From Candidatus Omnitrophota bacterium (lineage in GTDB: Bacteria; Omnitrophota; Gorgyraeia; Gygaellales; Profunditerraquicolaceae), in contig JBAZTA010000004.1 of assembly GCA_041662125.1 (NCBI GenBank), positions 343-64,342 on the forward strand: a stretch of DNA of 64,000 nt. The letters run 5' to 3'. Position numbers and translations under genes: made by a program. Numbering within the stretch: position 1 is the stretch's first letter; every line of letters begins with the position of its first letter. Positions 639-61,686 of this stretch are shown here, in pieces. The notes beneath the pieces are model-generated. The model had not been told where the DNA came from. It searched no databases and was given only the letters and a program-made list of their open reading frames with translations.

Positions 639-2372
639 TTAGCCTGATTCCAAGGTAACCCGAAAAACTTCTTCGGTTGTTGTAACACCCAGTATCAATT
701 TATCTAACGCAGCTTTACGCAAGGTCGTTAAACCTTCTTTTACGGCAACCTCGCGGATAACTTCAGCTGAAGAACGCGTCAGGACCATTTGTTGAATTCC
801 TGGCGACATCTTTAAAAGCTCATAAATACCGATCCTCCCCTTATACCCTGTTTTATTGCATATCTGGCAGCCGCGGCCGCGGCTGAATTTAATATCCTTG
901 CCTATTTTTTCTTCTAACCCTAAGCTTTTAAGCAATTCAGGCGCCGGAGCGTAATATTCTTTACACTTTTCACAAACCCGCCTGACTAAACGCTGAGCCA
1001 GGATACCCAATAACGATGAAGAGACTAAAAACGGCTCAACGCCCATATCAATTAAACGCGTAAAAGAAGATGCAGAATCATTCGTATGCAGCGTCGAGAA
1101 AACAAGATGGCCGGTAAGCGCGGCCTGTACCGCGATCTCAGCGGTTTCCTTATCTCTAATTTCTCCGACCATAACAATATCAGGGTCCTGGCGCAAAAAA
1201 GAACGCAAGGCGCTCGCAAACGTCAAACCCGCAATAGGATTGACCTGAACCTGGCGCATTCCCTGAAACTGATACTCAACCGGATCCTCAACAGTCATAA
1301 TATTGACATCTTCTTTATTAAGCATCTGCATACTGGAATATAGTGTCGTAGTCTTACCGCTGCCGGTAGGGCCGGTAACCAGGACAATGCCATAGGGAGA
1401 ACTAAGGATTTCTTTAAATAAAGACATTTCCCGGGAAGGAAACCCCAGCGATTCCAACCCTAAGACCAGCCCTGTTTTATCCAAGATCCTCAAAACCACA
1501 TTTTCTCCATGAACCGTAGGGCATGTGGAGACGCGAAAATCAATATTCTTGCTGCCGATCTTCATCATAATACGGCCGTCTTGCGGCAGGCGCTTCTCAG
1601 CAATATCCAGGTTTGACATGATCTTAAACCGGGATATGATCGCGCCGGCCAAATCACGCGGAAGAGACGGCTGATGACGCAGGATCCCATCAATACGGTA
1701 ACGAACATTTAAAAGCTTATCTTCCGGTTCGATATGAATATCCGAAGCTTTCATCTGCACTGCCTGCACAATAAGATGGTTGACTATTTTTATGATCGGA
1801 GCCTCTTCTCCAAGTTTCTCTCCGTCAACAAGTTTGTCTTTATCGATTGAAGCAATGATCTGCTGTAAATTAAACGCTGAACCCCCGTAATATTGGTCCT
1901 GGGCTTTACGAATATCTAATTCTTCGGCTAAAACCGGTTCCACATTAAGCTTGGTTATACGCTGCAGTTCATCGATAACGAAAACATTCTTAGGGTCCTG
2001 CATCGCGACAGTAAGCGTATTCTCAACTATGAAAACAGGGATCAATTTATACTTTCTGGAAAATTCCTCGGGGATAATCTTGATAACATCAGGTTCAATG
2101 ATATAGCCGGCAAGATTGAATTTAGCGATACCGGATTGGGAGGCTAGCGCCCGCTCTAATTCCTCCTGGCTGACCAATCCATTTTTAAGCAAGATCTCCC
2201 CTATCTTCTCAGTAGAAAACTTCTGCTGATCGAGAGCTTCTTTTAACTGAACCGGCGTGATCAAACCGCGTTCAATCAGTATTTCACCTAATTGTTTATG
2301 AAAACCTTCTGCCATAGTATGTATGTAATTTTCACCACAGGACTTGACGCAGGCGAGCATCCATCTCTTCAA
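639..2372 (-). CDS. PilB/GspE/MshE-family traffic ATPase with N-terminal MshEN (T2SSE_N) domains
   Basis: Walker A GPTGSGKTTTLYS, Asp/His boxes and a C-terminal tetracysteine (CEKC...CQIC). The N-terminus QLGEILIERGLITPVQLKEALDQQ plus the tandem KIGEILLKNGLVSQEELERALASQ match the 24-aa MshEN c-di-GMP-binding motif RLGxxLVxxGxITxxQLxxALxxQ. The true start is probably the internal Met at 2315 (MAEGFHK), which removes the 41-nt overlap with the upstream gene. Confidence 0.9.
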   Translation of the reverse strand: MKRWMLACVKSCGENYIHTMAEGFHKQLGEILIERGLITPVQLKEALDQQKFSTEKIGEILLKNGLVSQEELERALASQSGIAKFNLAGYIIEPDVIKIIPEEFSRKYKLIPVFIVENTLTVAMQDPKNVFVIDELQRITKLNVEPVLAEELDIRKAQDQYYGGSAFNLQQIIASIDKDKLVDGEKLGEEAPIIKIVNHLIVQAVQMKASDIHIEPEDKLLNVRYRIDGILRHQPSLPRDLAGAIISRFKIMSNLDIAEKRLPQDGRIMMKIGSKNIDFRVSTCPTVHGENVVLRILDKTGLVLGLESLGFPSREMSLFKEILSSPYGIVLVTGPTGSGKTTTLYSSMQMLNKEDVNIMTVEDPVEYQFQGMRQVQVNPIAGLTFASALRSFLRQDPDIVMVGEIRDKETAEIAVQAALTGHLVFSTLHTNDSASSFTRLIDMGVEPFLVSSSLLGILAQRLVRRVCEKCKEYYAPAPELLKSLGLEEKIGKDIKFSRGRGCQICNKTGYKGRIGIYELLKMSPGIQQMVLTRSSAEVIREVAVKEGLTTLRKAALDKLILGVTTTEEVFRVTLESG

Positions 2373-5300
2373 GCTTATTTAACCAGCTTTTCACCGCTTT
2401 CTCTTTCTTCCCCTGGGCTGATTCCGAATATATATTTTCCTCATTACCAGATTGCCGTATCTGGTTTGTTTTCCGTTTAGACATTTGATACTCTAACTGC
2501 TCTTTATCGCGTAGCGCTTCTTTACGCCTTTCTACTGCTGATTGCTGCTGGTCAATCTTGGCTTTTGCCGCCGATTCCCGCTTATCGAGTAATGGCTGCT
2601 GACCTTGAGATCGTATAAAACGTTTTTGCTGCTTTAACTCTGCCTGAAGCAGCTGTTCTTCTTTAACCCGCTGGCGCTTTTCTTCTTTAGCCGCCTCCAA
2701 CTCTTGAACGCGTTCCAACTTCTCTTTTTTCGCTGTTATCCGTTGTTCATGAATTTGTTTTTGTTGCTGGATTTTCTGCTCTACGAGCTGGAGTTTAGCT
2801 TCCTCAGCCTGTTTCAAGCGTTCTTGTTTTTGCTGCAGGGCCTCCTGATGCTGCGCAAGGCGCTGTTTTGCCAATTCCTGATCCTGCGAAGCCATTTGGC
2901 GCTTTTGCTCTTCAAGCTGATGTATACGCTCCTGTTCCTGCTTCTCTGCTGCCAGGCGCTTCTCTTCTTCTTCCTTGGCCAGCTGTTCCAGGCGCTTTTT
3001 TTCTTCTTCCTGAGCAAAAATACGGGCCGCCGAAACAGCCTGTTTTTGCTCTAACAGTTCTTTTTGTTTCTCCGCGATTTTCAGTTTCTTGGCTTCAGCT
3101 AACTTTGCCTGTTCTGCTGCTGCCTGCTTCTCCGCTGCCAGCTGCTTCTCTTCCGCTTCCTTAGCCAACCGTTCTTGGCGAACATTCTCGTCTTTAAGCT
3201 TCTTCAAACGCTCCTGCTTCTGGGCCTCTAAAACCAACCGGTTTGCTTTTTTAATCCCTGCCTGCTCTTCTGCTATCTGTTTCTGCTTTTCCTGGGCTGC
3301 TTTTTCCGCTGCCAACTGCTTCTCTTCCGCTTCCTTAGCCAACCGTTCTTGGCGAACATTCTCGTCTTTAAGCTTCTTCAAACGCTCCTGCTTCTGGGCC
3401 TCTAAAACCAACCGGTTTGCTTTTTTAACCCCTGCCTGCTCTTCTGCTGTCTGTTTCTGTTTTTCTTGTTCCTGCTTCTCTGCTGCCAGACGTTTCTCTT
3501 CCTCTTCCTTAGCCAGCTGTTCTTGGCGTTTTCTTTCTTCTTCAAGCTGTTTAAAACGTTCCTGCTTATTGATTTCCGCTGCCAACCTCTTTGCTGCTTT
3601 AAGGCTTGCCTGTTCCGCTGCTATTTGCTTCTGTTTTTCCTGTTCCTGCTTCTCCGCTGCCAAGCGTTTTTCTTCTTCTTCCTTGGCCAACTGTTCCGTT
3701 GATTTTTTTTCTCCGTCAGGCTTATGCAAAGTTTCCTGTTTCTTTTCCTCTATTGCCTTATTCCCGATCTGCCCTTTATCTCCTTTAGCCTTCTTTTGCA
3801 ATCTCTGTTTACGCAATTCTTCCTTTTGTATCCGCGCTTCTTCTAAAGAAACCTCTTTTCTTTTCGCAAGCCAGGCAGAAACATCTTCTTGCGACTGTTC
3901 TCCTCCCGCAGCCTGCGGAGATTTTTGCAGCTTTATCAAGGCCTGTTCCTGGGCCGCTACCCCTTCCGGCTTAAGCGCTTCCTGAGGCTTTAAAACCTCA
4001 ACCGATTGTTGCAGAGGGGCTATTGACTCTGCTTTTTTTTTAGCCTCCAGGGCTATTTGTTTTATCTGATCCGCTTGCTCTTGTCGGCGCTTCTTGTCTT
4101 GCGCAGCCTGTTTTAAACGCGCCTCTTTTTTCTCTTGAGCTTCCCGCTGCTTTATTTCTTTCTGTTTTCCTAATTGAATCTTCTGTATTTCAAGGGCCTG
4201 CTTTTGCTCTTCGATCTGAGCGAGGTAATTTTGTTCCTGCTCAGTTAATTGCTGAGTGCATTCTTTTTTTAATTTCTCCTCTTGCTTCTTTTTTTCTTGT
4301 TTTAATCTTTCCTGTTCCGCGGCTTTTTGCTTCTGTTTTTCTTCTTCAGCACGAACAAGTTCAGCCGCGCGCTGTTTTTCTTCCGCTTGCCGCTTTAACT
4401 CTTCCTGTTTTCTTTCTTCAGCGAGAAGCTTTCTTTCTTCCCTGATCTTTTCTTTTGCCGCTTCCAATTCTTGCAGCCGTTCCTGTTTTTCTTTCGCGGC
4501 TTCAAGCCGTTCCTCTGCCTTCTGCTTGGCGAGTTCTTCTTTATTTTTCTTTGTTTCTTCAAGCTTCTTAAGGAGCGCCTGTTTTCTTTGTTCTTCTGAT
4601 ACCTGTTTCTCTGCTGCCAGGCGTTTTTCTTCCTCTTGCTGAGCCAAATCTTCCTGCCGCTTCTGCTCCTGCGCAAGCTGCTTTATGCGCGCTTCTTTTT
4701 GTTGCTGGGCGAGTTTCCTTTTATCTTCTTTGAGCTTTTCCTGTTCACTTAAACGCTGTTTCCGCGCGTCTTCTTTTTGTTTCTTGCTGAGCTGCTTCTG
4801 GCGTTCCTCTTCCTGCCGTACGGCCTCTAACTGTTGCCGCTGCTGCAGCTGCTCTAATGCAAGTTTTTGCGTGATCAATTCCTGTTTCTTAGCCTCGATT
4901 TCCGCAAGGCGAGCCTGAGCCATACGCTCACGCTCCAGATTCTCTTCATTCAAACTTTTTTGTTCTTTTTGTTTTGCCAGGTCTTCTTGGCGCCTGCGTT
5001 CCTCATCTTGGGCAAAGAAGCGGGCCTGCGTGGCGATTCTTTTTTCTTCCTCCAAAGCAATCTGCCGCTGTATCTGGTCCTCTTCCTTAATATACTGATC
5101 TATCCTGTTTACCAAAGCGTTGATTCTGCCGTCCTCACCCAGATATTCTGTCTGCATGCCCGGGACGGTTTTCTGTACTGCCGAAGTTTCCTCAATTTTC
5201 TTATCCGTTCTGCACCCGGCCATGGAAGGAGCCGGCAGGGAATCAACTATTTTACTCTTATCTACCTGTATACCTGCCGGTGACTGCTCTTTTAAGAAAT

Positions 5301-5529
5301 CTTGGATCGCCTGCTTGCGCCTCAAAACCTCTGCTTTTTTCTTACGCAGCGCCTTGATATATTCCTCTTCTGCTTTGACCTTCTGCCGCACATCTTTCAG
5401 GCGCATTTCTTTTTCAACCGCGTTATTATCTTGAGCATAAGAGGCAGCGCTTCCCCAAAACATACATCCCATTACCCATACACCCGCGATCATAAAGAAT
5501 AATTTTTTCATCAGATAACCCCTAAGCAT
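2332..5529 (-). CDS. Giant (1065 aa) secreted E/K/Q-rich coiled-coil or single-alpha-helix protein with internal tandem repeats
   Basis: N-terminal signal peptide MKKLFFMIAGVWVMGCMFWGSAASYAQ. More than 800 aa of charged low-complexity helix (EEEKRLAAEKQEQEKQKQ...). Exact 58-aa (174-bp) tandem repeats are visible in the DNA at about 3131-3650. Its start codon abuts the stop of the upstream secretin gene (5529/5530). Confidence 0.8.
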   Translation of the reverse strand: MLRGYLMKKLFFMIAGVWVMGCMFWGSAASYAQDNNAVEKEMRLKDVRQKVKAEEEYIKALRKKKAEVLRRKQAIQDFLKEQSPAGIQVDKSKIVDSLPAPSMAGCRTDKKIEETSAVQKTVPGMQTEYLGEDGRINALVNRIDQYIKEEDQIQRQIALEEEKRIATQARFFAQDEERRRQEDLAKQKEQKSLNEENLERERMAQARLAEIEAKKQELITQKLALEQLQQRQQLEAVRQEEERQKQLSKKQKEDARKQRLSEQEKLKEDKRKLAQQQKEARIKQLAQEQKRQEDLAQQEEEKRLAAEKQVSEEQRKQALLKKLEETKKNKEELAKQKAEERLEAAKEKQERLQELEAAKEKIREERKLLAEERKQEELKRQAEEKQRAAELVRAEEEKQKQKAAEQERLKQEKKKQEEKLKKECTQQLTEQEQNYLAQIEEQKQALEIQKIQLGKQKEIKQREAQEKKEARLKQAAQDKKRRQEQADQIKQIALEAKKKAESIAPLQQSVEVLKPQEALKPEGVAAQEQALIKLQKSPQAAGGEQSQEDVSAWLAKRKEVSLEEARIQKEELRKQRLQKKAKGDKGQIGNKAIEEKKQETLHKPDGEKKSTEQLAKEEEEKRLAAEKQEQEKQKQIAAEQASLKAAKRLAAEINKQERFKQLEEERKRQEQLAKEEEEKRLAAEKQEQEKQKQTAEEQAGVKKANRLVLEAQKQERLKKLKDENVRQERLAKEAEEKQLAAEKAAQEKQKQIAEEQAGIKKANRLVLEAQKQERLKKLKDENVRQERLAKEAEEKQLAAEKQAAAEQAKLAEAKKLKIAEKQKELLEQKQAVSAARIFAQEEEKKRLEQLAKEEEEKRLAAEKQEQERIHQLEEQKRQMASQDQELAKQRLAQHQEALQQKQERLKQAEEAKLQLVEQKIQQQKQIHEQRITAKKEKLERVQELEAAKEEKRQRVKEEQLLQAELKQQKRFIRSQGQQPLLDKRESAAKAKIDQQQSAVERRKEALRDKEQLEYQMSKRKTNQIRQSGNEENIYSESAQGKKEKAVKSWLNKLEEMDARLRQVLW
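3131..3650 (-). repeat. Coding tandem repeat, period 174 bp: two near-identical copies plus a diverged third
   Basis: 3131-3294 and 3305-3469 are nearly base-identical (differences e.g. taatccc/taacccc and gctatctg/gctgtctg). A third, more diverged unit follows. On the minus strand this encodes LVLEAQKQERLKKLKDENVRQERLAKEAEEKQLAAEK..QEKQKQIAEEQAGIKKANR. Confidence 0.85.
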
Positions 5530-6798
5530 CTATTGCTTCATTTTTTCTACAACTACTTTTTCCACTTCCTCTAAAACCCTGAGGTCCTGTTCTTGCCTGC
5601 GCAGATCCTGCTCCAATGCTTCTCTTTCTGAAAGCAGGGAAGAATGTTTTTTATTGAGCATCTCGACCTTAGTCGCGGTTTCTTTTTGTTTTTTCTTTTC
5701 CTGAGCCTCTGCCACTAACACATCCTTTTCCTGTTTCTGTTTTTCCTGAAAATAATGCTTTCCCAGGCCGTACCTCTCCTGCTGCCCCATTTTTACAAAC
5801 TCATTCGGCGTGATTATCGTAGGAGAGACAAAGATCATTAATTCTGTCTTATCAAACGTGTCTTTCTTGCTTTTAAACAAATACCCAAAGCCGGGGATAT
5901 CTCCTAAAAAAGGTATCTTCGTTTCTCCCTTGATGACTTTATCTTTGATCAATCCGCCGATGATCAATGTCTGCCCGTTACCAACAATGACCTTCGTCGT
6001 TGCTTCACGCCGGTCAATAATGGGAACATTATATGACACCCCGGAAGCAGTCAGCGGCAACTCTCCGGTCTTTTCGCTTATCTGTGGATACAATTCCATA
6101 GCTATGTTGCCAGCTTCATTGATGGTCGGAGTTACCTTCAGGCTTATACCAACTTGTTCAAAATGTACTACCCAGGTCACCGTGGTGACGCCATCAGTGG
6201 TTGTCGCCTGCGGCTCGGCCCAAGGGACACTTTGAATGATCTTTAATTCCGCTTCACGGTTATTCACCGTTGTTATCCGCGGCGCAGAAAGGATGCTCGT
6301 ATCCACCGCGTTAGCTAACGTTTGCAATACCACATTGATATTATCATCAAATATGGCAAAAGTAAACGGCGTTTCCGAAACTCCTGATGACGACACCGGA
6401 GGGTATAAAGTATTTTTGTAGGAAAGGCTTTGAGTTATCGGCCCTGGTAACGCTCCCAAGGTACTTGCTGAGCCGGACTTTAAAGTGCCGATAGGCAGAT
6501 ATCCTTTATCCGCGAATAACCGCCAATTCACGCCTAAAGAGTGTTCTTTCTGTAATTTTGCTTCAATGACCCGGGCTTCGATCAAAACCTGCTGAGGAAC
6601 AGTATCCACCATTGCCAGGTAATCTTCAACCCGCTGGACGTTATCAGGATAATCGATCACAACAATAGAATTCGGCTCATTGCCATAGAGAACCTTTCCC
6701 TCCGTAGATAACAACGATCTAATGTTATCACTGACTTGTTGAGCATAAACTACGGAAAAGCAAAAAAGAAAAAATAAAACGTATCCTAACTTTTTCAT
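5530..6798 (-). CDS. Secretin core protein (one N-domain plus secretin C-domain) lacking an N0 domain; C-terminal EK-rich coiled-coil tail
   Basis: Signal peptide MKKLGYVLFFLFCFSVVYAQ. N-domain motif NSIVVIDYPDNVQRVEDYLAMVDTVPQQVLIEARVIEAKL. Secretin signature IPFLGDIPGFGYLFKSKKDTFDKTELMIFVSPTII. About 90 aa of charged C-terminal extension. Confidence 0.8.
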   Translation of the reverse strand: MKKLGYVLFFLFCFSVVYAQQVSDNIRSLLSTEGKVLYGNEPNSIVVIDYPDNVQRVEDYLAMVDTVPQQVLIEARVIEAKLQKEHSLGVNWRLFADKGYLPIGTLKSGSASTLGALPGPITQSLSYKNTLYPPVSSSGVSETPFTFAIFDDNINVVLQTLANAVDTSILSAPRITTVNNREAELKIIQSVPWAEPQATTTDGVTTVTWVVHFEQVGISLKVTPTINEAGNIAMELYPQISEKTGELPLTASGVSYNVPIIDRREATTKVIVGNGQTLIIGGLIKDKVIKGETKIPFLGDIPGFGYLFKSKKDTFDKTELMIFVSPTIITPNEFVKMGQQERYGLGKHYFQEKQKQEKDVLVAEAQEKKKQKETATKVEMLNKKHSSLLSEREALEQDLRRQEQDLRVLEEVEKVVVEKMKQ

Positions 6799-6852: not shown

Positions 6853-7806
6853 CTAATTCGTAGTAGTTGCCGATGACGAGGAAGACGCACTGCCGGATGA
6901 GGAAGTAGTTCCCGTCGAGGTACTGCTCCCTGCCGTAGTAACAACGCCTACTATATCAGAAGCTTTTAAATACTTCATCTTAAAAATTTTACTTGTCATA
7001 CGCTGATCGATCTGTTTTAAATAATCTTCGATTTGCGCGGCATTCGGAGGATAATCAATAATAATAATTGAATTCGGGAGCTGCCCTAAAAGGATCTTTC
7101 CTTTCTCAGAAATAAGGTCATAGATCGTGCTTTCTTCCTTTTTTGCCTCAGCCGGCAGAGCCGCGTTACCCGCAGGAGATGCTACCGTCTTTGATTGGGC
7201 GCCTTGCGCTGCTTTCGCAGCTTCAAGCAGCTTCTTAGCTTGAATATATTTTAAAACAACCATCTTGGTAACCAGATGAGGACTGACCCGGATAATCGAA
7301 CCTTTTTTCTCTACCACCAGATTACTGATCTCAGCAATTCCTTCAAGAGCCTCTTCTAATGAAATGTTCGTAAAACTGGCGGTGATTTTCCCCTTGATAT
7401 CTTTATCAACCAAAATATTCAAATTATAATCATGCGCAATAACGCGGAACAAGTCAGACAACTCCACATTCCTTAACTCAATCGAATATGACGGCTGCTC
7501 ACTTTCTAAACGCTTGATCTCTAATACCGGCGCAGGCGCAGTTAATTCTTTTTTTACAACGTCTTTCTTTCCCGCATCCTTAACATCGGCTTCTGCTTTT
7601 TCGTCAGCCGGCTCTTCATCCTTACTATCGTCAACGCCGGAATCTTTTTGCCCAACGCTGGGCACCGAAGGCTTCGGTTGAGCCGGTTTTTCGGAATCCT
7701 CATTTTCCATTTCTGTCTGCGGCCGGGCAAACAATGGATCTTGGTAATTATAAAGCATAAAAAAGAAACCGATTAATCCGATAAACGCTATTTTCTTTAG
7801 TGTCAT
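6853..7806 (-). CDS. Secretin N0-N1 domain protein (N-terminal half of a split secretin) with acidic linker and Ser/Thr-rich C-terminal tail
   Basis: Signal/TM MTLKKIAFIGLIGFFFMLYNY. Acidic low-complexity stretch. N0/STN-like block SIELRNVELSDLFRVIAHDYNLNILVDKDIKGKITASFTNISLEEALEGIAEISNLVVEKKGSIIRV. N1-like block LPNSIIIIDYPPNAAQIEDYLKQIDQR. Tail TTAGSSTSTGTTSSSGSASSSSSATTTN. Confidence 0.65.
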   Translation of the reverse strand: MTLKKIAFIGLIGFFFMLYNYQDPLFARPQTEMENEDSEKPAQPKPSVPSVGQKDSGVDDSKDEEPADEKAEADVKDAGKKDVVKKELTAPAPVLEIKRLESEQPSYSIELRNVELSDLFRVIAHDYNLNILVDKDIKGKITASFTNISLEEALEGIAEISNLVVEKKGSIIRVSPHLVTKMVVLKYIQAKKLLEAAKAAQGAQSKTVASPAGNAALPAEAKKEESTIYDLISEKGKILLGQLPNSIIIIDYPPNAAQIEDYLKQIDQRMTSKIFKMKYLKASDIVGVVTTAGSSTSTGTTSSSGSASSSSSATTTN

Positions 7807-10506: not shown

Positions 10507-10692
10507 ATGCTGTAACTAATTGTGACACAGCTAACAACGCTTAAAAAAGCTTACATAAATAACCAAGTTTTACCTAACCATACCTGATACTATTTGATGA
10601 TACTTTAAACTATTAGATATAAATTGTCAAGAATTATATTTTTTCCTATAGTATCGTAAGTTTTTGCCACACAAATATATTCAACAAATCCC
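10507..10692 (-). promoter_or_regulatory. AT-rich promoter region of the HTH-led secretin operon
   Basis: The minus strand contains cTTGACAa (complement of 10626-10633) with AT-rich -10-like hexamers 16-17 bp downstream. This is the largest intergenic gap in the pilus region. Confidence 0.4.
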
Positions 10693-11526
10693 TTAAACCC
10701 GCGCAAGCTTCAAGAGTTTACTCTTGCTATCCTCAGAAATTTCTGAGAATTTTATACCTAAATAATACCGCTGTCTTTCCTGAATATTGCAATAAACAAT
10801 CTCTCCCTGAACCGCAATAACCTCATCACCGATCCCGGGATTCGGCCTAAATTCTATATCCACCGTAAGGCCTTTAGGCAGAAATAAGCATACCTGTAAA
10901 CTAACAGCTTTCCCGGATTCCGATATATTACAGGACACCCCCTCAACAGAAAGAATAGAACGCAATTGCACTTCTGTTCCTGCAAAGATAACACGCACAG
11001 GAACAGTTAAACTGCGGCGGCCTGATTCCCTGCGAAACGGTACCCCTTGTAAAGGATTTTTCTTGAATAATAACTTCTCCAGTTTAAAAAAATCTGCTTG
11101 CGGGCCGTAATATAAATCAAGCGCTTGCAGGATAGCGCGGGGAGAAGCAATCAACGGCTCTATCGTTGCCCCGCTCAGAGAAGCTATGCGGTCAAGTAAC
11201 GCAGTATCAAAAGGGTCCCCGCAAGCCACATACAACGTATTCTTTATTTTAAATAACGGGATACACTCATACTCCCGGCAAAAAGATTCGCTTAACCCTT
11301 GGAAGACATGCGCGCTAATTTTATAGTCCGGAATAGTTACGTAATTGACCGCGCTTTCCTGTGAGAAAAATACAAAAATATCTTCTTCGGTAAGATACTC
11401 CAGCTTTACCAACACACTCCAAATGGACCTGCCTAACTTCAACGCTTCCTGCTTGGCGTCAAGCAGTTGTTGCGAAGTAATCAACGTACTGCGGACAAGC
11501 TTCAACTCAAACTCTTCCATCGGCAA
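10693..11526 (-). CDS. MshEN (T2SSE_N)-PilZ two-domain c-di-GMP effector
   Basis: The N-terminal 140 aa is GSPII_E-N-like (LITSQQLLDAKQEALKLG...ACGDPFD...DLYYG). The C-terminus is a PilZ fold with RRESGRRS (RxxxR) and CNISESGKAV (D/NxSxxG). Confidence 0.7.
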   Translation of the reverse strand: MPMEEFELKLVRSTLITSQQLLDAKQEALKLGRSIWSVLVKLEYLTEEDIFVFFSQESAVNYVTIPDYKISAHVFQGLSESFCREYECIPLFKIKNTLYVACGDPFDTALLDRIASLSGATIEPLIASPRAILQALDLYYGPQADFFKLEKLLFKKNPLQGVPFRRESGRRSLTVPVRVIFAGTEVQLRSILSVEGVSCNISESGKAVSLQVCLFLPKGLTVDIEFRPNPGIGDEVIAVQGEIVYCNIQERQRYYLGIKFSEISEDSKSKLLKLARV

Positions 11527-11530
11527 TGCG

Positions 11531-12103
11531 CTATCCTTTTTCTTGCTGAGGGTAATACTTTTTTATAAAATCAGCCAGGTTTTCCGAAATCTTCTGTTCT
11601 TCAATAATATACATGCCTCCCTTAGTTAACTCTTCCGGAGATACCTGCGGGTACTTTTTCTGCATTGCTTCAAGCCATTCTGCCTGCTGACGGGCAATTT
11701 TCAGCAATACCCGGTTATCGCGGACCACATCAAAATAATCAAGCGACTGCTTCACGATCATTTTCAATTCTTCGTTTTCCCAGGGTTTGGTAATAAAGCG
11801 GTATACCTGCCCCTTATTGATTGCCTGAATAGCAGCTTCCAGGTCAGGATACCCGGTAAAAAGGATACGGATCGAATCAGGATAGAGCTGTTTAACTTTA
11901 ACCAGAAAATCAACGCCCTGGCCGTCTGGCAGGCGGTTGTCGGAAATGACTAAATCCACACCTCCTAAACTCTTGAGTTTATCAAGGCCTTCCTGAACAC
12001 AACCAGCAATATTTATATCCCTGTCTTCAGCGCGCAGCAGCCTGCTTAAACTGCTTAAAATATTCTGCTCATCATCAACGATTAAAATAGTATGGTTAGG
12101 CAT
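11531..12103 (-). CDS. Response regulator receiver (CheY-like REC) with short C-terminal extension
   Basis: ILIVDDEQNI...DLVISDNRLPDGQGVDFLVKVK...FTGYPD...ITKPW: phospho-acceptor Asp and conserved REC motifs. Confidence 0.85.
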   Translation of the reverse strand: MPNHTILIVDDEQNILSSLSRLLRAEDRDINIAGCVQEGLDKLKSLGGVDLVISDNRLPDGQGVDFLVKVKQLYPDSIRILFTGYPDLEAAIQAINKGQVYRFITKPWENEELKMIVKQSLDYFDVVRDNRVLLKIARQQAEWLEAMQKKYPQVSPEELTKGGMYIIEEQKISENLADFIKKYYPQQEKG

Positions 12104-12455
12104 TCTTTTGCTCCTCTAAATTTTTAACATAGTGATCGATATACTCCTTTCCGGAAGACGGAAAGATTTTTGTAAACATGACCCCCATGCCCGCCGCCTC
12201 TGAGCCACCCGCGGGCCTGCTCCACTGCACTATCCCTTCCGCATGAATGATCTTCTTTTCTTTGCCGCCTTCATCAAACTCAAACATGACCTCGATCTTG
12301 GCATTAGCCGGCTCTACCTTATCGGTTGAAACAAACATCCCTCCCGCGGAAATATCGCGGGTTTCGACATACTGCCAAAAACTTTTTCCTCTGACCTCTA
12401 CTCGTAGCTTAACAAACGCCCGCTTATATTGCCTTTTTTCGTCAAAAGCCCCCAT
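12096..12455 (-). CDS. Standalone PilZ-domain protein
   Basis: RQYKRAFVKL (RxxxR) and DISAGGMFV (DxSxxG) motifs. Confidence 0.75.
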   Translation of the reverse strand: MGAFDEKRQYKRAFVKLRVEVRGKSFWQYVETRDISAGGMFVSTDKVEPANAKIEVMFEFDEGGKEKKIIHAEGIVQWSRPAGGSEAAGMGVMFTKIFPSSGKEYIDHYVKNLEEQKNA

Positions 12456-12528
12456 CGTTTCTCCTGGTTATTGTATACGTTTCCCCAACCCCGTCCTTGC
12501 GCGCTTTAAAAAACTAAAACAATCTTAA

Positions 12529-13380
12529 TCATGACCCTTGAGGCGCCCTCGGCAATTGCACCACAAACGTTGTCCCTGCTCCAACAGTACTCTCCACCTT
12601 CACATCGCCGCCATGATGCTTAACAATATTATAGCTGACTGACAACCCAAGCCCCGTGCTTTTTTTGGTCGAGAAGAACGGATCGAAGATCTTCGGCAAG
12701 ACATCTTTTGCGATGCCAGTTCCGGTATCAATTACTTTAACATATACATTCCTGGCATCTTCATAGGTGCTCATCGTGATCGTCCCTTTATCAACGATAG
12801 CCTGGCTGGCATTAATCAACAGATTAAGGAAAACTTGAGACAATTGCGTCGTATCTGCCAATATCTTGGATTTTGCCTGATAGTCTTTTATGACCGTCAC
12901 CTTATACTTTATCTCATTCCAGACGATCGCAAGCACCGACTCCAGGACATGATTAATCTCAACCGCAGCATTCTGCGTCTCGCTTCTGCGGGAGAAAGTA
13001 CGCAGGTCAGAGACGATTTTCTTGATACGTACCGCCCCGTCAAGCGACTCCTGGTTCATCGCCTTCATGTCTTCGATCAATACCTTATTTTCTTTTTCCG
13101 TTAAAGAAATCTTTCCCTCGATCTGCTGGGTATAATCTTTAAGGCTTTGCAGGTTGCTGATTAGAAAACCGAGCGGATTATTGATCTCATGCGCGATACC
13201 CGCAGCCAACGTTCCCAAGGAAGCCATCTTTTCCATATGCACGATCTGAGCTTCGGCATCTTTTACAAGCTTTGTTTTCTCATCGACTTTTTTCTTCCAA
13301 AAGCTGTTCATGACAACGGTATATACCACGCAGGCAATAACGCTGATCGCGATCACTATGAGCATTCCCCCGATATTCAT
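12529..13380 (-). CDS. Sensor histidine kinase (TM anchor + DHp + HATPase_c, no sensor domain)
   Basis: N-terminal TM helix. H-box HEINNPLGF. N, G1 and G2 boxes (LLINASQA, IDTGTGIAKD, GLGLSVS). Confidence 0.85.
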   Translation of the reverse strand: MNIGGMLIVIAISVIACVVYTVVMNSFWKKKVDEKTKLVKDAEAQIVHMEKMASLGTLAAGIAHEINNPLGFLISNLQSLKDYTQQIEGKISLTEKENKVLIEDMKAMNQESLDGAVRIKKIVSDLRTFSRRSETQNAAVEINHVLESVLAIVWNEIKYKVTVIKDYQAKSKILADTTQLSQVFLNLLINASQAIVDKGTITMSTYEDARNVYVKVIDTGTGIAKDVLPKIFDPFFSTKKSTGLGLSVSYNIVKHHGGDVKVESTVGAGTTFVVQLPRAPQGS

Positions 13381-14722: not shown

Positions 14723-16387
14723 TTACAACTGCTCCGAGGAAACCCTTGAGATTTCTTCAATAGTAGTTACCCCTAACAAGACTTTCGATAACCCGTCTTC
14801 GCTTAAAAGTTTCATGCCGTTTTCCTGCCCTTTTTTACGCAAAGCAAGCGCGGATGCCTGCTGCACGATCATCTCTCTCATTTCATCACTGATCACCAAC
14901 AATTCAAAGATGCCGGCCCGGCCGCGGTAACCAGTGCCTTTACAACTGTCGCATCCTTTCCCGTGATATAATGTCACGTTCGAGGCGTTCGTCAAGCCCC
15001 ATTTTTCTAAGATAACTTTTGACGGCTGATACGGCTCTTTACAATTCTCGCAGATCTTCCTGACAAGCCGCTGCGCCATGACGCCGATTAAACAAGCGGA
15101 AATGAGAAACGGTTCAACTCCCATATTGACGAGCCGGGTCACTGCGGAAGGAGCATCATTGGTATGAAGCGTCGAGAACACTAAATGGCCGGTCAACGCT
15201 GCCTGGACAGCAATAACGGCAGTTTCTAAATCCCTGATTTCCCCCACCATAATCACGTCAGGATCCTGACGCAGTATAGCGCGCAAGCCATTGGCGAAAG
15301 TGATGCCGGCTTTTGCGTTAACCTGGATCTGCCGGATAAGCCCTAAACGATATTCCACAGGGTCTTCAATCGTAATAATGTGCCGGTCGATCGTATTGAT
15401 CGTGGTGAGCGCGGAATAGAGCGTGGTCGTCTTACCGCTTCCCGTCGGACCGGTTGAAAGGATGATGCCGTATGGCTTGGAGATCAAGCCCCGGTAACGA
15501 TCCAGGTCTGTCTGTGTCGCAAAACCCAACCGTTCCAGGCCGATCCTGACTGAAGCGGTATCCAAAAGCCTCATAACCAGGTTCTCTCCGTAAATAGTCG
15601 GAATAGTCGAAACACGGAAATCAATGATCTTTTCATCTACCTTAACCTGGAAATGGCCGTCCTGCGGGACCCTGCTTTCAGCAATATCCATCCCCGCTAA
15701 CACCTTCAAACGGGAAAGGATCGCCGGTTCCCATTCTTTGGGAGGAGAAGGGATCTCGTGCATAATACCATCGATACGGAAGCGTATGCGGGTCATATCC
15801 TGTTCGGGCTCAATGTGAATATCTGAGGCCCGGTCATGGACTGCCTGAGCAATAACCAAATCTACCAACTTAATAATTGAGGTGCCTTCCGAACGTGACT
15901 CTTTGGAAGGGGCAGACTCTTTGGTATTTAACCCCTCAAGCAAGTTTTTAGTAATCTTGCGCTCAACATATAAACGCTGCTGCGCGTCTGCGATATCCTG
16001 AGTGCCGGCATAATAAACTTCAATAGGCATCCCGGTATGCATCTGTATCTGGTCAATGGCGTATAAATCATTCGGGTCAGCCATGGCAACGCGCAGCGTA
16101 TTATTATCGATCTTAACCGGAATTGACTGTGTCTGGCGGGCTAACCCTTCCGGCACGGTTTTAATGAGCTCCTCGTCAAACTCGATATTTTCCAGGCTCA
16201 CATACTTAAAACCCAGCGATCGGGCGATAGTTTCATGCAAGAGAGGGCGGGAAACAATATTCATATCAACCAGGACTTTATCCAGCGGCCGCTTTAACAT
16301 TTTCATTTCCTGGCTTGCCCTGTCTATGTCCGCCTGATTAACCAATCCCGAGCTTAACAATAATCCTTCCAGATCTTTATCATTCAT
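14723..16387 (-). CDS. pilB: PilB/GspE-family assembly ATPase (second copy)
   Basis: N-terminal GSPII_E-N domain. Walker A GPTGSGKTTTLYSAL. C-terminal CxxC...CxxC (CENC...CDSC). Confidence 0.9.
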   Translation of the reverse strand: MNDKDLEGLLLSSGLVNQADIDRASQEMKMLKRPLDKVLVDMNIVSRPLLHETIARSLGFKYVSLENIEFDEELIKTVPEGLARQTQSIPVKIDNNTLRVAMADPNDLYAIDQIQMHTGMPIEVYYAGTQDIADAQQRLYVERKITKNLLEGLNTKESAPSKESRSEGTSIIKLVDLVIAQAVHDRASDIHIEPEQDMTRIRFRIDGIMHEIPSPPKEWEPAILSRLKVLAGMDIAESRVPQDGHFQVKVDEKIIDFRVSTIPTIYGENLVMRLLDTASVRIGLERLGFATQTDLDRYRGLISKPYGIILSTGPTGSGKTTTLYSALTTINTIDRHIITIEDPVEYRLGLIRQIQVNAKAGITFANGLRAILRQDPDVIMVGEIRDLETAVIAVQAALTGHLVFSTLHTNDAPSAVTRLVNMGVEPFLISACLIGVMAQRLVRKICENCKEPYQPSKVILEKWGLTNASNVTLYHGKGCDSCKGTGYRGRAGIFELLVISDEMREMIVQQASALALRKKGQENGMKLLSEDGLSKVLLGVTTIEEISRVSSEQL

Positions 16388-21004: not shown

Positions 21005-22798
21005 CTAATATTCCAATTTACAGGTTATTTCGAACGTTGCCGCAGGGATTGAAGAATATTTATCCGGCTCGCTGGCAACTAAAACAACATCCTTAAAAAA
21101 AGGTGATTCCTCCAGCACCATCTGATACTGCGATAATGCCAGATCCACGATAGTATACTGAGAAACGATCCTGCCGCGCAAACGTATTTCTTTCGGTTCT
21201 TTTGCCGCTTCGGTACTGACCATCGAGAGCACGACATTCTTCGGCGTAATATTGCTAAGCTCTTTAAAAACCCCCCACCAAAGGGGCTGTTTTCCTATGG
21301 CTTTTTCCAAAAGGTCTTTGCGCTGATCTAAGCGTGTTTTCATATCTAAATACCCTCTTACCTGAGCAACCGTCGGTTCCAGGCGCAAAATTTCCTCCTG
21401 GGTCGCCTGAATAAGGCTTTTATACCTGACGTTATTAAGGTAGCTAAACCCGTGCATTACTAAAAATAAAAGCAAGGTTACCGGGAAGAAGAGTCTAAGC
21501 AACAACCGTAAAAAGAGTGTTTTTTGCTCTAACTTTTCAGTATTCGGCAAAAGATTTATTTTCCCGCCGCTGCCTAAACAAAGGCCAAAGGCTACCGCCA
21601 AATGTGGCGCAGCCTGTTCCATTACAAAATCCTGTTTTAAAACTCCTTTTTCGGTCCACCCCTTGATCGTCTTAAGCACATTAAGCCGTTCCACCTTCTT
21701 TAACCGTTCAAGATTATACAAAAAAAACTTATCAAGATTCTTCAAACGGGAGCTGCCGCCGGTAATATACAACTCCTCGATATTTTCGGCTTTAAACGTC
21801 TTGGCGTAATAACTGACGGTACGAGTGATCTCCATGATCAGCCGCTCCAGGGTCGGCCGAAACATCGTCGATATCTGTTCGCCCAGTAAAGCCCCGTAAT
21901 CCGTCAAGAACTCAGTCCGGGACTCGTCTTCCAGAGGAATACCGCAATTACGCTTGATCTTCTCGGCGTCATCAAAGCTTAATTCAATGGTCTGGCTCCC
22001 GGAATCTATTGGTTTTGCCATTGCCCGGGTCAAGTGGTCGCCGCCGACAGGGATATCGCGCATAAATACCAGGTCCCTGCCTTTATAAAAATTGAGCGTT
22101 GTATTATTAGCGCCCACATCAAGCAGCATAACGGTCTTATTCGCGGGTGCCTCGACACAAAAAGACACCAGGTTACCGAGCGCGTCAGGGATAATATTGA
22201 TCGCCACCGGACGGATATTGATATCTTTGAGGAACTGCATCTGCTCATCGAGAGCCAAGCGGTCAACCGCAATACAGGTTACCTGCAGGTTCGGCCCCTT
22301 ATCGTCCTGCCCGCGGCCGGTAATAAAAAAATCAAAAGACACGTTGTTGATATCGACCTGAAAAGGCATCCGTTTCTTCAATTCCAGGCCGATCAACCCG
22401 CGTAAATCTTTTTTATTGATCACCGGGACGCTCAGAGAAAAGACAAATATCCCTTTCCCGGAAATGGCAAGGCGGGCAAAGCGTGTTTTAATGGGGCTCT
22501 CAGCGATAAATTTCTTAATAATATCCTGAATGAGTTTTTTCTTGGCAAGAGCATCTTCCCTGATATCCAAAGGGATGCTGCGGATAACACAATCTGTTAT
22601 CAGGTATCCTTTGCTTATCTTCTGCAGCTGCAAAACCTTGATATGGCTTGAGCCAATGTCAATCCCGATAACATGCTGCCCGGAAGCAATAAAATTCTGG
22701 AAAGACGCAGCAAACACAGTCCAGAAATCATGAGATGACGATTTCGGCTTTGCCGGTTTCACAGCGCCCTGATTTCCCTTCGGTTTCTGATCGCTCAT
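21005..22798 (-). CDS. pilMN: Fused PilM (actin-like ATPase fold) - PilN protein
   Basis: N-terminal PilM block (VIGIDIGSSHIKVLQL...LDVGANNTTL...ITGGSS). After residue ~400, a TM helix (LFLRLLLRLFFPVTLLLFLVM) and a PilN-like periplasmic domain. Confidence 0.75.
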   Translation of the reverse strand: MSDQKPKGNQGAVKPAKPKSSSHDFWTVFAASFQNFIASGQHVIGIDIGSSHIKVLQLQKISKGYLITDCVIRSIPLDIREDALAKKKLIQDIIKKFIAESPIKTRFARLAISGKGIFVFSLSVPVINKKDLRGLIGLELKKRMPFQVDINNVSFDFFITGRGQDDKGPNLQVTCIAVDRLALDEQMQFLKDINIRPVAINIIPDALGNLVSFCVEAPANKTVMLLDVGANNTTLNFYKGRDLVFMRDIPVGGDHLTRAMAKPIDSGSQTIELSFDDAEKIKRNCGIPLEDESRTEFLTDYGALLGEQISTMFRPTLERLIMEITRTVSYYAKTFKAENIEELYITGGSSRLKNLDKFFLYNLERLKKVERLNVLKTIKGWTEKGVLKQDFVMEQAAPHLAVAFGLCLGSGGKINLLPNTEKLEQKTLFLRLLLRLFFPVTLLLFLVMHGFSYLNNVRYKSLIQATQEEILRLEPTVAQVRGYLDMKTRLDQRKDLLEKAIGKQPLWWGVFKELSNITPKNVVLSMVSTEAAKEPKEIRLRGRIVSQYTIVDLALSQYQMVLEESPFFKDVVLVASEPDKYSSIPAATFEITCKLEY

Positions 22799-39487: not shown

Positions 39488-42309
39488 TTAGAACGCGTGG
39501 CTCAAACCCACCCAAAAATGCGTGCTCTCTTTTGAGTCATTAATAGGCCGGGCAATATCAAAGCGAAGCACCACCTTTTCCAGAAACCCGACGATATCAA
39601 AATGCAGGCGCAGCCCTACCCCTGCGTTTTTCTTAAAGTTGGCTGATCCAAAATCGTTATACCAGGCCTTAGCGATATCAAAAAACCCGACTGCCTGGAT
39701 CTTATTCAGGCAAAAAACATTATCCAAGAAATACATTTTCATATCGCCGCAGAGCGGAAAACGGTATTCCGCTGACCCTAACATCATGCGCGAGCCCTCT
39801 ACCGTTTCCCTGCCATACCCTCGCAAACCATCCGCGCCGCCGAGATCAAAAAGGCCCTTTTCACCCGAACCTCCCCATCCAACCTTCAGGCGTGTCGCTA
39901 ATTTCTGTGAAAACTTAGGTAAAAGCAAACGGTAAGTATCTAATTCTAAACTCGTGCGCCAAAAAGATTCATTTCCTCCCAGGAAGTGGCCTGCGAATTC
40001 CTGCTGAGGGATTAATTTCCAGCCATAATCCGGGTCTGAATACGGGCCATACCGGCACAACGAAGCAGCCAACCCCAGGATTGTTTCATCAGTCTTCCTA
40101 TAGACGATATTACGCGCGTCTTCTGCGCCATTAACACTGACCTGCTGGTCAAGTTTTTGATCCTTCAAAAGATACAAGGTAACATGATCATTCAGGTCAA
40201 AAATACCATAGCGCGCCGGCCATAATTCGCGCCGGATATACAGCTTGCCCCCAGATACATCTTGACGGCCCAAACGATACTGGCGGTTAAAAACATCCAC
40301 TCCTACAGATACCTGTTTATTAAAAAGATGGGGAAATTCATAGCCTGCCGTATATTCTGATTCTTTATCATTAAAATTATAGAGAGAAGAAACTTTCACT
40401 AATCCGTCATAGGGTTTTGCCGCAGATGCCGCCGCCCCAAGCCACTGTCCACGCAGATCAGGGCCAAGAACCACATTATAAGATCCATCCGGCATAAGCG
40501 AAGGTATCTCATAGGCGAAAAAGTACCAGGGGACTGGTTTAAGGAAAATATTCCTCGGCCACGAATTGTTTACCCGGTCTAAATCCAGGATGATCTTTTT
40601 ATCAGGGTCTACAACGACTTTTGAAACAGTTTTCCCCCCGGTAAGAGGTATGGGTATATTTTTCCCCGCCCCATCCCACGGGAAAATGCTCTCTGTCCCG
40701 TCATGATAGGTGATCTTTGTTTCTACCGGCATTACTATCAAACCGCGGTTTTCTAAAATAAATGCGCCGCGGGCAACCGGCTTAACAGCGTAATCGCAAG
40801 CCTGCTTAGTCTTAAGCCATCCGTGAAAGAACAGCGTAAGATCTTTCCCCGACTCTTCATTACAGATCCTCATAAAATCATCAAAACTAAAATTCTTAAA
40901 CCTGAATTCCCCGGTATAACGTTTCATAACACCTTCAAATACCTGGCTGCCAACCTCGGCATTGAGCATCTCTAAAACAGCTGCCCCTTTGCCATAGGTC
41001 AAAGCAAATATTGATGACGGCTCCTGAAAACTCGAAAGGTCGCTCACAACCGGCCCGTCGAGGCCGTTTTTCGCTAAATACAGGTAGCGAGCGACTGTTG
41101 AGCCGTGAAAAGAAAAGTTGGGAACAAGCCATCGTATCCCTGGCGGTAAGGTCAAAACTTGAGCATCAGGCCCATAGGTATGCTCTAAATAGCGCAATAT
41201 CCAATATGAATTCATACCTTCATCAAGGAACATCTCCCTGTATTCATCAGAACCAATGATATTATAAAACCACTGATGGCCGGTTTCATGCGCTATCAAG
41301 AAATTAAAATACCGCTCTAAGAATCCCGGCACGCGATAAACACGGGTATCAATAAATATAAAACAGGAAGACTGGCATCCGCCGTAGCCTAAATAACTAG
41401 GGACTATGGAGAATGCTTTATACGGATATGACCCAAAACGCTCGGCGTAATACCGCATTAATGAGGCCGCGTACGAAGCCGCAGCAACAGCTCTTTTTTC
41501 GTCACCTTTAAGATAATATGATTGGATCGTCACCTCACCGGAAGCTATGGAATGGACTAAAAAAGATTTGCTGACTCCCAAAGCAAAATCCCTGACCGGG
41601 AATTCAGTCTCCATCATCAGGGTTTTTGTCCCGTCAGGATTGTCTGTTTTGGTTTTTACCAAAGCCGTAGAAGCTACAACTTCATCCTGAGGAAGCGTAA
41701 GGGTAACTTTGTAGTAAGAGGCTTCACTGAAATACGGCTGATGATAGATATAAAAAGGATAATTGTGCCAGCCGGACTTATCCACTACGCTTAAAAGCGG
41801 ATACCAGCGGGCAAGGCTGGTGATCCCCTGATGCCAGCCGAACCTGCCGTACGCATGGGGGATATCTACCTTAAAATCTAAGATGATCTCTTGTGAATCT
41901 CCGGGTTTAAGCGATGAATCAAGTCCAACCTTAAGAATTGTCTGATCATCCCCTTCCATACGATAAGAAAGAACATTGCCGCGAGAGGATATTTTTTCTA
42001 TTTTTAAATCGCCTCCCTGAAACCCTTCAGGGAAAGGATCCATCTTAAAATAACCGGCATAGCGGTACATAAAGCCAATTTCTTTCTTTGTATACCGGCG
42101 ATGAGGATAAACGTGAAAATACAGGGCGTCAAGGGCCGTATCGGAATTATTGGTAAATATTACTTTCTGGCTTGCGGTGATCGTGTGATTTTTGGTATCA
42201 AGCCGTGCGGTGATCTCATACCGGGGACACTCAGCGGCGAAAGAAAGCAAAAAGTTAAAGAGGCAGAAAAAAAGTGAAAAAAATAATACCACCTTTAAGC
42301 TCTTATTCA
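39488..42309 (-). CDS. M1-family (aminopeptidase N-like) zinc peptidase domain fused to a C-terminal Omp85/surface-antigen beta-barrel
   Basis: Signal peptide MNKSLKVVLFFSLFFCLFNFLLSFAAE (probable start near 42309; the longest ORF extends to 42481). Gluzincin motif HETGHQWFYNIIGSDEYREMFLDEGMNSYW, i.e. HExxH...W..N..(18)..E. C-terminus DLGGADGLRGYGRE...GVGLRLHFDIVG...WVGLSHAF ends in Phe like outer-membrane barrels. Confidence 0.7.
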
Positions 42310-42347
42310 TGCTTATCCTCATTCTATAATCCCACAATTGTGATCCC

Positions 42348-55024: not shown

Positions 55025-55041
55025 ATCCTCTCCTTTTTAAT

Positions 55042-57422: not shown

Positions 57423-57445
57423 ACATACACCTTATTACCTATGGA

Positions 57446-60479: not shown

Positions 60480-60507
60480 AGTCTTCTGAGCCTTTTTAAC
60501 GTACGAG

Positions 60508-61056: not shown

Positions 61057-61059
61057 ATC

Positions 61060-61662: not shown

Positions 61663-61686
61663 AGTTATCTCCTACTCTCAATAATA

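Follow-up and report, generated by a model that had tools for sequence, protein, structure and literature searches.

How does cyclic di-GMP (c-di-GMP) reach a pilus machine that is encoded with two motor ATPases and a single platform? The control of type IV pili and of type II secretion systems (T2SS) by this second messenger is either direct, through an MshEN domain of the motor, or exerted in trans, through PilZ and FimX, as in Xanthomonas. The question is raised by a 64-kb stretch of DNA (contig JBAZTA010000004.1; hereafter "the window") from a Candidatus Omnitrophota bacterium, which belongs to a phylum that, to our knowledge, has no cultured representative. The window (45% GC, nearly all genes on the minus strand) carries at positions 639-25742 a type IVa-pilus/T2SS-like locus, which we read as two modules, A and B. 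The last four genes of module A encode a histidine kinase (HK), a stand-alone PilZ protein, a REC response regulator and a protein in which an MshEN domain is fused to a PilZ domain (MshEN::PilZ, hereafter "the fusion"). We propose that this cassette is a conserved accessory signalling unit at the 3' end of the first pilus operon, where the fusion would operate as an ATPase-less docking hub that brings in c-di-GMP input in trans, a reading to which we give a probability of about 40%.

The four cassette genes, all of them on the minus strand, had been assigned in a sequence-only reading of the stretch, and all four assignments hold with significant Pfam matches (Table 1). The same reading had counted at least four c-di-GMP receptor modules, whereas in the cassette and the motors three predicted c-di-GMP sites are well supported by their sequence motifs (the two PilZ domains and the MshEN domain of ATPase 2, one of the two PilB-type motors), and not four, because the MshEN motif of the fusion is degenerate. 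The fusion matches the Pfam MshEN model PF05157 with 70.8 bits (cutoff 23.1) over residues 60-143; this model spans mainly the C-terminal subdomain, the c-di-GMP site being in the N-terminal four-helix part, MshEN_N, for which Wang et al. (2016; PMC5013675) described a tandem c-di-GMP-binding motif. The register of this motif in the fusion was set by the hidden Markov model (HMM) alignment of the 32-member fusion family to MshE and to the Geobacter and Myxococcus PilB proteins. The fusion keeps 13 of the 22 positions of the motif under relaxed scoring and eight under strict scoring, and it reaches 20.7 bits on the NCBIfam c-di-GMP_motif model NF053729, i.e., under the cutoff of 38. Motif 1 has a Glu at the guanine-contacting Gly3, and motif 2 reads Ser-x-Trp for Arg-Leu-Gly; Gln24 is changed to Ala in motif 1 and Glu in motif 2, and Arg1 to Glu and Ser, respectively. 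This degenerate pattern is family-wide, with Trp at position 3 of motif 2, or Phe/Tyr in distant lineages. In the family alignment, E7, W36 and E57 show little or no variation, W36 being kept in the distant members P0068, P0073, P0075 and P0076, and elsewhere replaced only by Phe or Tyr.

It is worth comparing these changes with those of two domains that do not bind c-di-GMP. XpsE lost the binding through G11V, G40L, Q61V and other substitutions (PMC5013675), and the GSPII-A domain of PilF, which does not bind the nucleotide, combines one near-perfect motif with another that retains 45% of the key positions (PMC11731258). Both motifs of the fusion are at or under this 45% level. As the changes in the fusion are comparable to or stronger than those of XpsE and PilF GSPII-A, non-binding is expected, and we regard its MshEN domain, the pocket of which is predicted to be dead, as no fourth receptor.

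The PilZ domain of the fusion (Pfam PF07238, 40.3 bits, cutoff 22.5) is apparently an intact c-di-GMP sensor, as predicted from its motifs: R166xxxR170 and N200xSxxG205 are invariant in the 32 family members and found in 25 of the 26 orthologues. The stand-alone PilZ (PF07238, 45 bits; TIGR02266, 49 bits, under the cutoff of 68.7) similarly possesses R8-x-x-x-R12 (12420-12434) and D34-I-S-A-G-G39 (12339-12356), and its R8, R12, D34, S36 and G39 residues are invariant in 23 family members. The degeneration of PilZ motifs, which the sequence-only reading had named as a weak point, is seen in neither domain, RxxxR and [D/N]xSxxG being intact in both and invariant in the immediate families. The PilZ domain of the fusion was also considered as a duplicate of the stand-alone PilZ, a possibility that we rejected on their non-significant BLASTP similarity (E >1).

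The AlphaFold2 (AF2) model of the fusion (predicted local distance difference test, pLDDT, 85.7; predicted template modelling score, pTM, 0.57) shows two domains predicted with confidence, between which a linker of low confidence (residues 146-167) holds RxxxR; the linker and the pTM value agree with the domains being mobile. The four-helix ND0 subdomain is predicted with a pLDDT above 90, and the order of helices and strands is that of the MshEN fold. Foldseek matched the N-domain with MshE (5HTL, template modelling (TM) score 0.74), the GSPII domains of PilF and the N-terminal domain of Xanthomonas PilB (7LKM), and the C-domain with the PilZ domains of BcsA, YcgR, MotI, PlzD and PP4397. The fusion comprises a full PilB-type N-terminal domain (ND0 and ND1) and no ATPase. 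Its true start is likely Met3 (coordinate 11520), since the resulting 275 amino acids (aa) are the length of a database protein of 100% identity and agree with the orthologue starts.

The mapping of the window proteins onto 107 loci yielded 50 non-redundant module-A loci that extend far enough downstream, nearly all of which are labelled Omnitrophota where named. The fusion occurs in 47 of them, spanning 33-73% identity, always as the last gene after GspF, with an intact reading frame and a constant length (~270-290 aa). What stands between GspF and the fusion varies: HK-(small membrane protein)-PilZ-REC in 24 loci and variants thereof in two; nothing, the fusion being alone, in 13; the small membrane protein in three; the small membrane protein and REC in three; and the small membrane protein and PilZ in two. 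Three loci (L051, L073 and L076) have no fusion. Hence, the fusion is the constant element (the hub), and the kinase, PilZ, REC and small membrane protein, which vary over at least eight architectures, are the variable inputs; the arrangement is a lineage feature. The small membrane protein (69-71 aa, two membrane helices; for example L005:1794-1997, L025:7701-7910 and L026:7729-7944), which in many relatives is encoded between HK and PilZ, persists where HK is absent; its gene is frameshifted in L001, the closest relative, and in L002 and L006, and is deleted in the window, where a 73-bp gap (12456-12528) is found. About half of the loci have module B directly behind the fusion; in the others, its place is taken by housekeeping genes, such as those for RecA, HtrA and AlaRS in L008, or DnaA, DnaN and GyrBA in L014. 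The cassette always remains behind GspF in the upstream module, whether or not the second module adjoins it.

The arrangement had been called uncommon, and it is: full-length MshEN::PilZ proteins form ~26 clusters at 50% identity among 1.84 billion representative proteins. The fusion family, which makes 34 clusters at 90% identity, is present in 20 GTDB species genomes, most of which are labelled Omnitrophota, the few others being labelled Planctomycetales or Deltaproteobacteria, or bearing no phylum label. Wang et al. listed MshEN fusions to REC, HD-GYP, CheA, CheX, cyclases and kinases, PilZ not being among them, and Seymour et al. (PMC10066038) reported type IVa pilus (T4aP) clusters across Omnitrophota in a paper where the term "c-di-GMP" is absent. 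In the literature searched, the coverage of which was incomplete, we found neither an MshEN::PilZ fusion nor a pilus signalling cassette of Omnitrophota described.

The fusion is under purifying selection, and it evolves faster than its neighbours. Compared with its two closest relatives, it shows 70-73% amino-acid identity and a ratio of nonsynonymous to synonymous substitution rates (dN/dS) of 0.12-0.17, as against about 91-96% identity and 0.02-0.07 for HK, PilZ, REC, GspF, ATPase 1 and the MerR-type gene, these ratios being rough as dS is near saturation. The dN/dS of the fusion is similar to the values for the module B envelope proteins, and its best-conserved segment is the RxxxR linker (86% identity). 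We rejected recombination as the cause of the low identity: the DNA aligns without a break across the gene, dS is about equal to that of the neighbours or slightly above it, and dN is 4-6 times higher. The low identity looks like the result of faster protein evolution, not of replacement.

The division between the two motors is conserved, ATPase 2 orthologues being canonical in their MshEN motif and ATPase 1 orthologues degenerate. ATPase 2 has at residues 27-79 (2136-2294) two 24-mers with an exact five-residue spacer, QLGEILIERGLITPVQLKEALDQQ-KFSTE-KIGEILLKNGLVSQEELERALASQ, which match 21 of the 22 relaxed and 19 of the 22 strict positions (position 1 is Gln or Lys, not Arg) and score 63.2 bits on NF053729 (cutoff 38). 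The "near-perfect duplicated MshEN 24-mer" of the sequence-only reading is right in that both 24-mers are near the consensus, yet they are far from identical to each other, sharing just 10/24 residues. The tandem motif is in register with the c-di-GMP-binding GSPII domains of PilF and with M. xanthus PilB, and its canonical form is always kept in the orthologues (22/22 relaxed positions). A check of the MshEN residues had been advised; the motif of ATPase 2 is upheld by its scores and its register, and that of the fusion is not upheld by the HMM alignment to PilB and MshE. As judged from the orthologues, which are also 558 aa long, the true start of ATPase 2 is probably Met20 (coordinate 2315), in which case the 41-bp overlap with the upstream gene disappears. 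In ATPase 1, the MshEN_N part, at residues 5-57 (16217-16375), starts with DLEGLLL and continues after a KMLKR spacer with PLDKVLV; both Gly3 residues are now acidic, and the motif matches 16/22 relaxed and 12/22 strict positions, with 21.8 bits on NF053729, under the cutoff. In ~50 orthologues, it matches 15-18 of the 22 relaxed positions, with both Gly3 gone, and is never canonical.

An HMM of the fusion MshEN domain gave 87-98 bits with ATPase 2 N-domains and 44-61 bits with ATPase 1 N-domains. We nevertheless rejected the idea that the fusion MshEN was copied specifically from the N-domain of ATPase 2: generic PilB proteins also score ~80 bits, so that most of the gap comes from how far ATPase 1 has diverged. 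Many relatives (L003:6016-6864, L027:2406-3248 and others) have an extra AAA_22 gene (GspA/ExeA-like) between ATPase 1 and GspF, together with an ATPase 1 that is ~50 aa longer; the window is without both features.

As for the phosphorelay proteins, the kinase (Pfam HisKA, 36.7 bits; HATPase_c, 87.4 bits) is, as read before, a sensor-less membrane protein, with one N-terminal membrane helix (approximately residues 5-27) and no sensor domain. Its phospho-acceptor is His64 (13189-13191), and the 17 HK orthologues keep the H-box AHE[IV]NNPL and the N, G1, F and G2 boxes LNxxxNxxQA, DxGxG, FDPFF and GLGLS. On the NCBIfam model T2SS_HK, it scores 237 bits, under the cutoff of 450. In the HK orthologue of L007 (7590-8870), a cytoplasmic PAS domain replaces the membrane anchor. 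The description of the response regulator as REC-only holds for the REC domain itself (residues 1-120; Pfam Response_reg, 67.3 bits), the D10, D11, T83 and K106 residues and the phospho-acceptor D55 being invariant in a 41-sequence alignment; it overlooked a conserved C-terminal tail of ~70 aa, which matched no Pfam family. In the AF2 model (pLDDT 81.7), a long helix (residues 110-150) is followed by a low-confidence segment ending in KKYYP. Among the NCBIfam models, the protein best matches NosR-family HD-GYP regulators, over their 143 N-terminal residues. The REC-plus-tail proteins form a large family (313 clusters, more than 120 full-length members), and occur at 53-57% identity in the same cassette. 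HK and REC keep all catalytic residues and are gained or lost together in most architectures, with exceptions. In one relative, a REC-GGDEF gene (L027:11262-12218, minus strand) lies 4.7 kb downstream of the cassette; since L027 encodes this protein, the lineage is able to make c-di-GMP, and its position suggests a possible target of the sensor-less kinase.

The stand-alone PilZ gene overlaps the REC gene by 8 bp. We considered this PilZ as a Xanthomonas-type PilB-binding protein, and rejected the assignment: the matches to 3CNR, 3DSG and 7LKO were weak (E 0.03-0.1) and disappeared with a 23-sequence profile. A single-sequence alignment to the Xanthomonas-type PilZ places a Trp opposite W69, which we keep only as a lead. 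The protein falls outside the XAC1133/PA2960 orthologous group, and retains its c-di-GMP motifs.

From these findings, we propose the following mechanism. A PilB N-domain that has no ATPase and is blind to the nucleotide is most plausibly a docking module. In the fusion, c-di-GMP would bind at the linker and the barrel and close the two domains on each other like those of YcgR, PlzD and PP4397, such a domain-closure switch being suggested by the intact PilZ domain and the RxxxR linker. The closure may in turn alter the docking of the MshEN-like domain on a PilM-N/GspL-type platform or on an ATPase N-domain, a target that we infer only from the ND1 domains in the GspE-GspL and PilB-PilZ structures, ND1 domains binding GspL/PilM and PilZ in solved complexes (PMC8389850). 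The fusion would thereby supply c-di-GMP control in trans to ATPase 1, the own motif of which is predicted not to bind, and ATPase 2 would sense c-di-GMP directly through its canonical MshEN motif. We propose trans control for module A because the ATPase 1 motif appears to be non-binding and the fusion rides with the operon of ATPase 1. Around this hub, the kinase, the REC-plus-tail protein, the stand-alone PilZ and the small membrane protein could add a phosphorylation input and a second c-di-GMP input, the target of the stand-alone PilZ being either the kinase and REC, for which it would be a HapZ-like adaptor, or the fusion itself.

Several observations weigh against this proposal. If the fusion made up for the lost c-di-GMP site of ATPase 1, a locus without it might be expected to have a canonical ATPase 1 motif; in L051, which has no fusion, this motif is equally degenerate, a result that is at most mildly negative but makes the compensation logic not obligatory. 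The PilZ and the fusion occur without HK and REC in L026 and L040, and REC occurs without HK and PilZ in L054, L060 and L068; a strict HapZ-like HK-PilZ-REC triad is therefore no general rule. The second PilZ motif of the fusion reads [DN]xSxxA in some distant lineages. The fusion protein evolves 3-6 times faster than its cytoplasmic neighbours, which may reflect a relaxed constraint instead of a co-evolution with a partner. Finally, the window has no diguanylate cyclase: in line with the sequence-only reading, which had noted the lack of a GGDEF or EAL enzyme, no GGDEF, EAL or HD-GYP domain was found among the scanned open reading frames (ORFs) of at least 90 aa (all but a few short or window-edge ORFs and a 1065-aa coiled-coil ORF), nor a GGDEF motif in a six-frame GG[DE]EF scan.

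Other explanations have to be weighed against the same data. The locus as a whole encodes two PilB-type ATPases and two secretins, as against one GspF/PilC, one PilM-N and one PilO, and it is this imbalance of two motors for one platform that keeps a motor selector alive as a rival, in line with the sequence-only reading, in which the arrangement might set the choice between the two outer modules. Such a selector would mimic the motor N-domain and compete with either ATPase for the one GspF/PilM-N/PilO platform, so that the motor and the secretin in use would be chosen by c-di-GMP and phosphorylation. The major-pilin-like gene that follows ATPase 2, the location of the fusion at the module junction in about half of the loci and its dN/dS, similar to that of the fast-evolving module B envelope proteins, are in keeping with this idea, and so is the HMM preference of the fusion for ATPase 2, were it not largely explained by the divergence of ATPase 1; moreover, the cassette is still found in module A in loci where module B does not adjoin it (L008, L014), so that we see motor selection as possible but on balance doubtful. 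It is rather improbable, in our opinion, that the fusion acts as a free-standing docking-domain mimic that occupies or releases the PilC/PilM-N platform under c-di-GMP (and under phosphorylation where HK and REC are present), and so decides between the c-di-GMP-sensing and the blind motor. If true, this choice of motor would be a previously undescribed switch in type IV filament systems. It would work in ultra-small, possibly host-dependent Omnitrophota, in which such pili are thought to serve in the attachment to other cells. Alternatively, the kinase-REC pair could be the primary regulator, similarly to PilG/PilH, with the PilZ proteins modulating the phosphotransfer in the manner of HapZ, which gates SagS phosphotransfer (bioRxiv 10.1101/2020.02.11.943704), and the MshEN domain merely localising the fusion at the machine. 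The conserved catalytic residues of HK and REC, the size of the REC-plus-tail family and its occurrence in the same cassette, the overlap of the PilZ and REC genes and the HapZ precedent speak for such a phosphorelay. We find it unlikely, since the fusion has neither HK, PilZ nor REC beside it in 13 of the 50 loci, and five more loci are without both HK and REC, which argues that the fusion functions without a phosphorelay.

The degeneracy of the fusion MshEN_N part can itself be read in two other ways. The pocket might have changed its ligand, Trp36 and Trp15 forming a new stacking site for another nucleotide or a peptide; this would fit the near-invariance of W36 (replaced only by Phe/Tyr), the conservation of E7 and E57 and the confident prediction of ND0. 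However, conserved aromatics may just fill an empty pocket and steady the helical bundle, and we met no precedent in the literature searched, so a re-tooled pocket appears very improbable. Neither does the fusion look like a non-functional leftover of a PilB paralogue after the loss of its ATPase. Its degenerate MshEN motif and its rapid evolution relative to its cytoplasmic neighbours (70-73% versus 91-96% identity) could be taken as signs of decay, but a dN/dS far below 1, an intact frame of constant length in 47 of the 50 loci, invariant PilZ motifs and a confidently predicted fold effectively refute it.

The trans docking reading of the cassette may be situated among known systems as follows. 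MshE of V. cholerae (5HTL), PilF GSPII-B and M. xanthus PilB resemble ATPase 2 in their N-terminal tandem 24-residue motifs with a five-residue spacer, and MshE shares with the N-domain of the fusion the two-subdomain fold; unlike MshE, the fusion has no ATPase, and it is deprived of both Gly3, Gln24 and Arg1, as in the non-binding XpsE and PilF GSPII-A. A precedent is the Xanthomonas PilB-PilZ-FimX complex (7LKO/7LKM), in which the ND0 of PilB is likewise motif-less and coupled to a PilZ fold, c-di-GMP acting on the motor in trans through PilZ on ND1 and FimX (PMC8389850). In fold, the N-domain of the fusion matches 7LKM, and in sequence profile, 7LKO. The two systems differ in that the MshEN-type and PilZ domains are here in one polypeptide with the PilZ motifs kept, whereas the Xanthomonas PilZ is a non-binder and FimX is the sensor. 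YcgR, PlzD/VCA0042, PP4397 and MotI (Foldseek hits 5Y6F, 2RDE, 3KYF and 5VX6) have the same C-terminal PilZ barrel, RxxxR linker and N-terminal partner-binding domain, that domain being YcgR_N/PilZN instead of a PilB-type MshEN, and the target the flagellar motor instead of a presumed pilus or secretion machine. HapZ (PA2799), the partner of SagS, is also a single-domain, motif-intact PilZ; the Omnitrophota PilZ is encoded between kinase and REC, overlapping the REC gene. This gene context speaks for a HapZ-type adaptor in the loci with HK, and that of L026 and L040, where the PilZ occurs without HK and REC, speaks against one. PilG and PilH are similarly REC proteins of a pilus locus with a canonical phospho-acceptor pocket and no DNA-binding output; in contrast to them, the REC protein described here has a conserved helical tail of ~70 aa, and its partner is a minimal membrane kinase, not Chp/CheA.

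In our reading, the locus holds the direct and the trans solutions to c-di-GMP control side by side, along with a third one, where the docking domain of a motor, stripped of its ATPase and its nucleotide pocket, is joined to a predicted working PilZ. All domains were already known, and it is their combination in the fusion and the cassette that appears to be new; we regard it as a useful lead rather than a surprise. Being near-constant (47/50 loci), the fusion offers a concrete, purifiable handle on pilus regulation; the proteins are small and soluble, and the predictions on which domain binds c-di-GMP are clear. The mix-and-match add-ons provide a natural series for studying how second-messenger and phosphorelay inputs are layered on one effector.

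Table 1. Positions of the cassette genes, of related genes of the pilus locus and of the parts of the fusion (window coordinates).
Feature	Size or residues	Positions	Strand	Basis
Histidine kinase (HK)	283 aa	12529-13380	minus	Pfam HisKA + HATPase_c
Stand-alone PilZ	119 aa	12096-12455	minus	Pfam PilZ
REC response regulator	190 aa	11531-12103	minus	Pfam Response_reg
MshEN::PilZ fusion	277 aa as called	10693-11526	minus	Pfam MshEN + PilZ
GspF/PilC platform protein, sole copy in locus	412 aa	13458-14696	minus	Pfam T2SSF 195.7 bits, synteny
ATPase 1, PilB/GspE-type	554 aa	14723-16387	minus	Pfam T2SSE 459.9 bits
ATPase 2, PilB/GspE-type	577 aa as called	639-2372	minus	Pfam T2SSE 473.8 bits + MshEN
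MerR-type helix-turn-helix protein, first gene of module B	63 aa	10315-10506	minus	ORF list, MerR Pfam matches of orthologues
Fusion: degenerate MshEN_N, four-helix	residues 5-57	11356-11514
Fusion: MshEN_C	residues 60-143	11098-11349
Fusion: flexible linker	residues 146-167
Fusion: RxxxR motif	R166-E-S-G-R170	11017-11031
Fusion: PilZ barrel	residues 165-274	10705-11034
Fusion: second PilZ motif	N200-I-S-E-S-G205	10912-10929

In the order of transcription, module A comprises minor pilins, a PilM-N fusion (21005-22798), PilO, a 156-aa protein, a secretin, a 446-aa coiled-coil protein, a TPR protein, ATPase 1, GspF/PilC and the four cassette genes. It is separated by a 186-bp spacer with a promoter-like site from module B, which consists of the MerR-type gene, a GspC-like protein, a 686-aa putative metallopeptidase, a secretin split over two genes, the 1065-aa coiled-coil protein, ATPase 2 and the major-pilin-like gene, which runs off the window. 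The promoter-like sequence, TTGACA-17-TAAAGT (10602-10630, minus strand), is a consensus match only, and lies upstream of the MerR-type gene. This gene, absent from the sequence-only reading, overlaps the start of the GspC-like gene; its orthologues (54-93% identity) stand at the head of the second module in relatives.

The two genes of the second secretin, at 6853-7806 and 5530-6798 (both minus strand), encode the N0/STN and Secretin_N part with a Ser/Thr-rich tail, and the secretin core with a signal peptide of its own, respectively; the split is kept in relatives. The coiled-coil ORF (2332-5529, minus strand; AT skew -0.40) is rich in Lys, Glu and Gln and has internal repeats; its counterparts measure 1105 and 1221 aa in close relatives, and much shorter ORFs are found instead in distant ones. 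Elsewhere in the window, a 1012-aa ORF (39488-42526, minus strand) has both a Peptidase_M1 domain and an Omp85 outer-membrane barrel, an unusual pairing. At a distance of ~30 kb from the pilus genes, there is an operon for a V/A-type ATPase (subunits c, I, D, A/B and E-like; ~54566-61671, minus strand); in Omnitrophota, non-respiratory ATPases have been reported in the vicinity of T4aP clusters, the type there being F.

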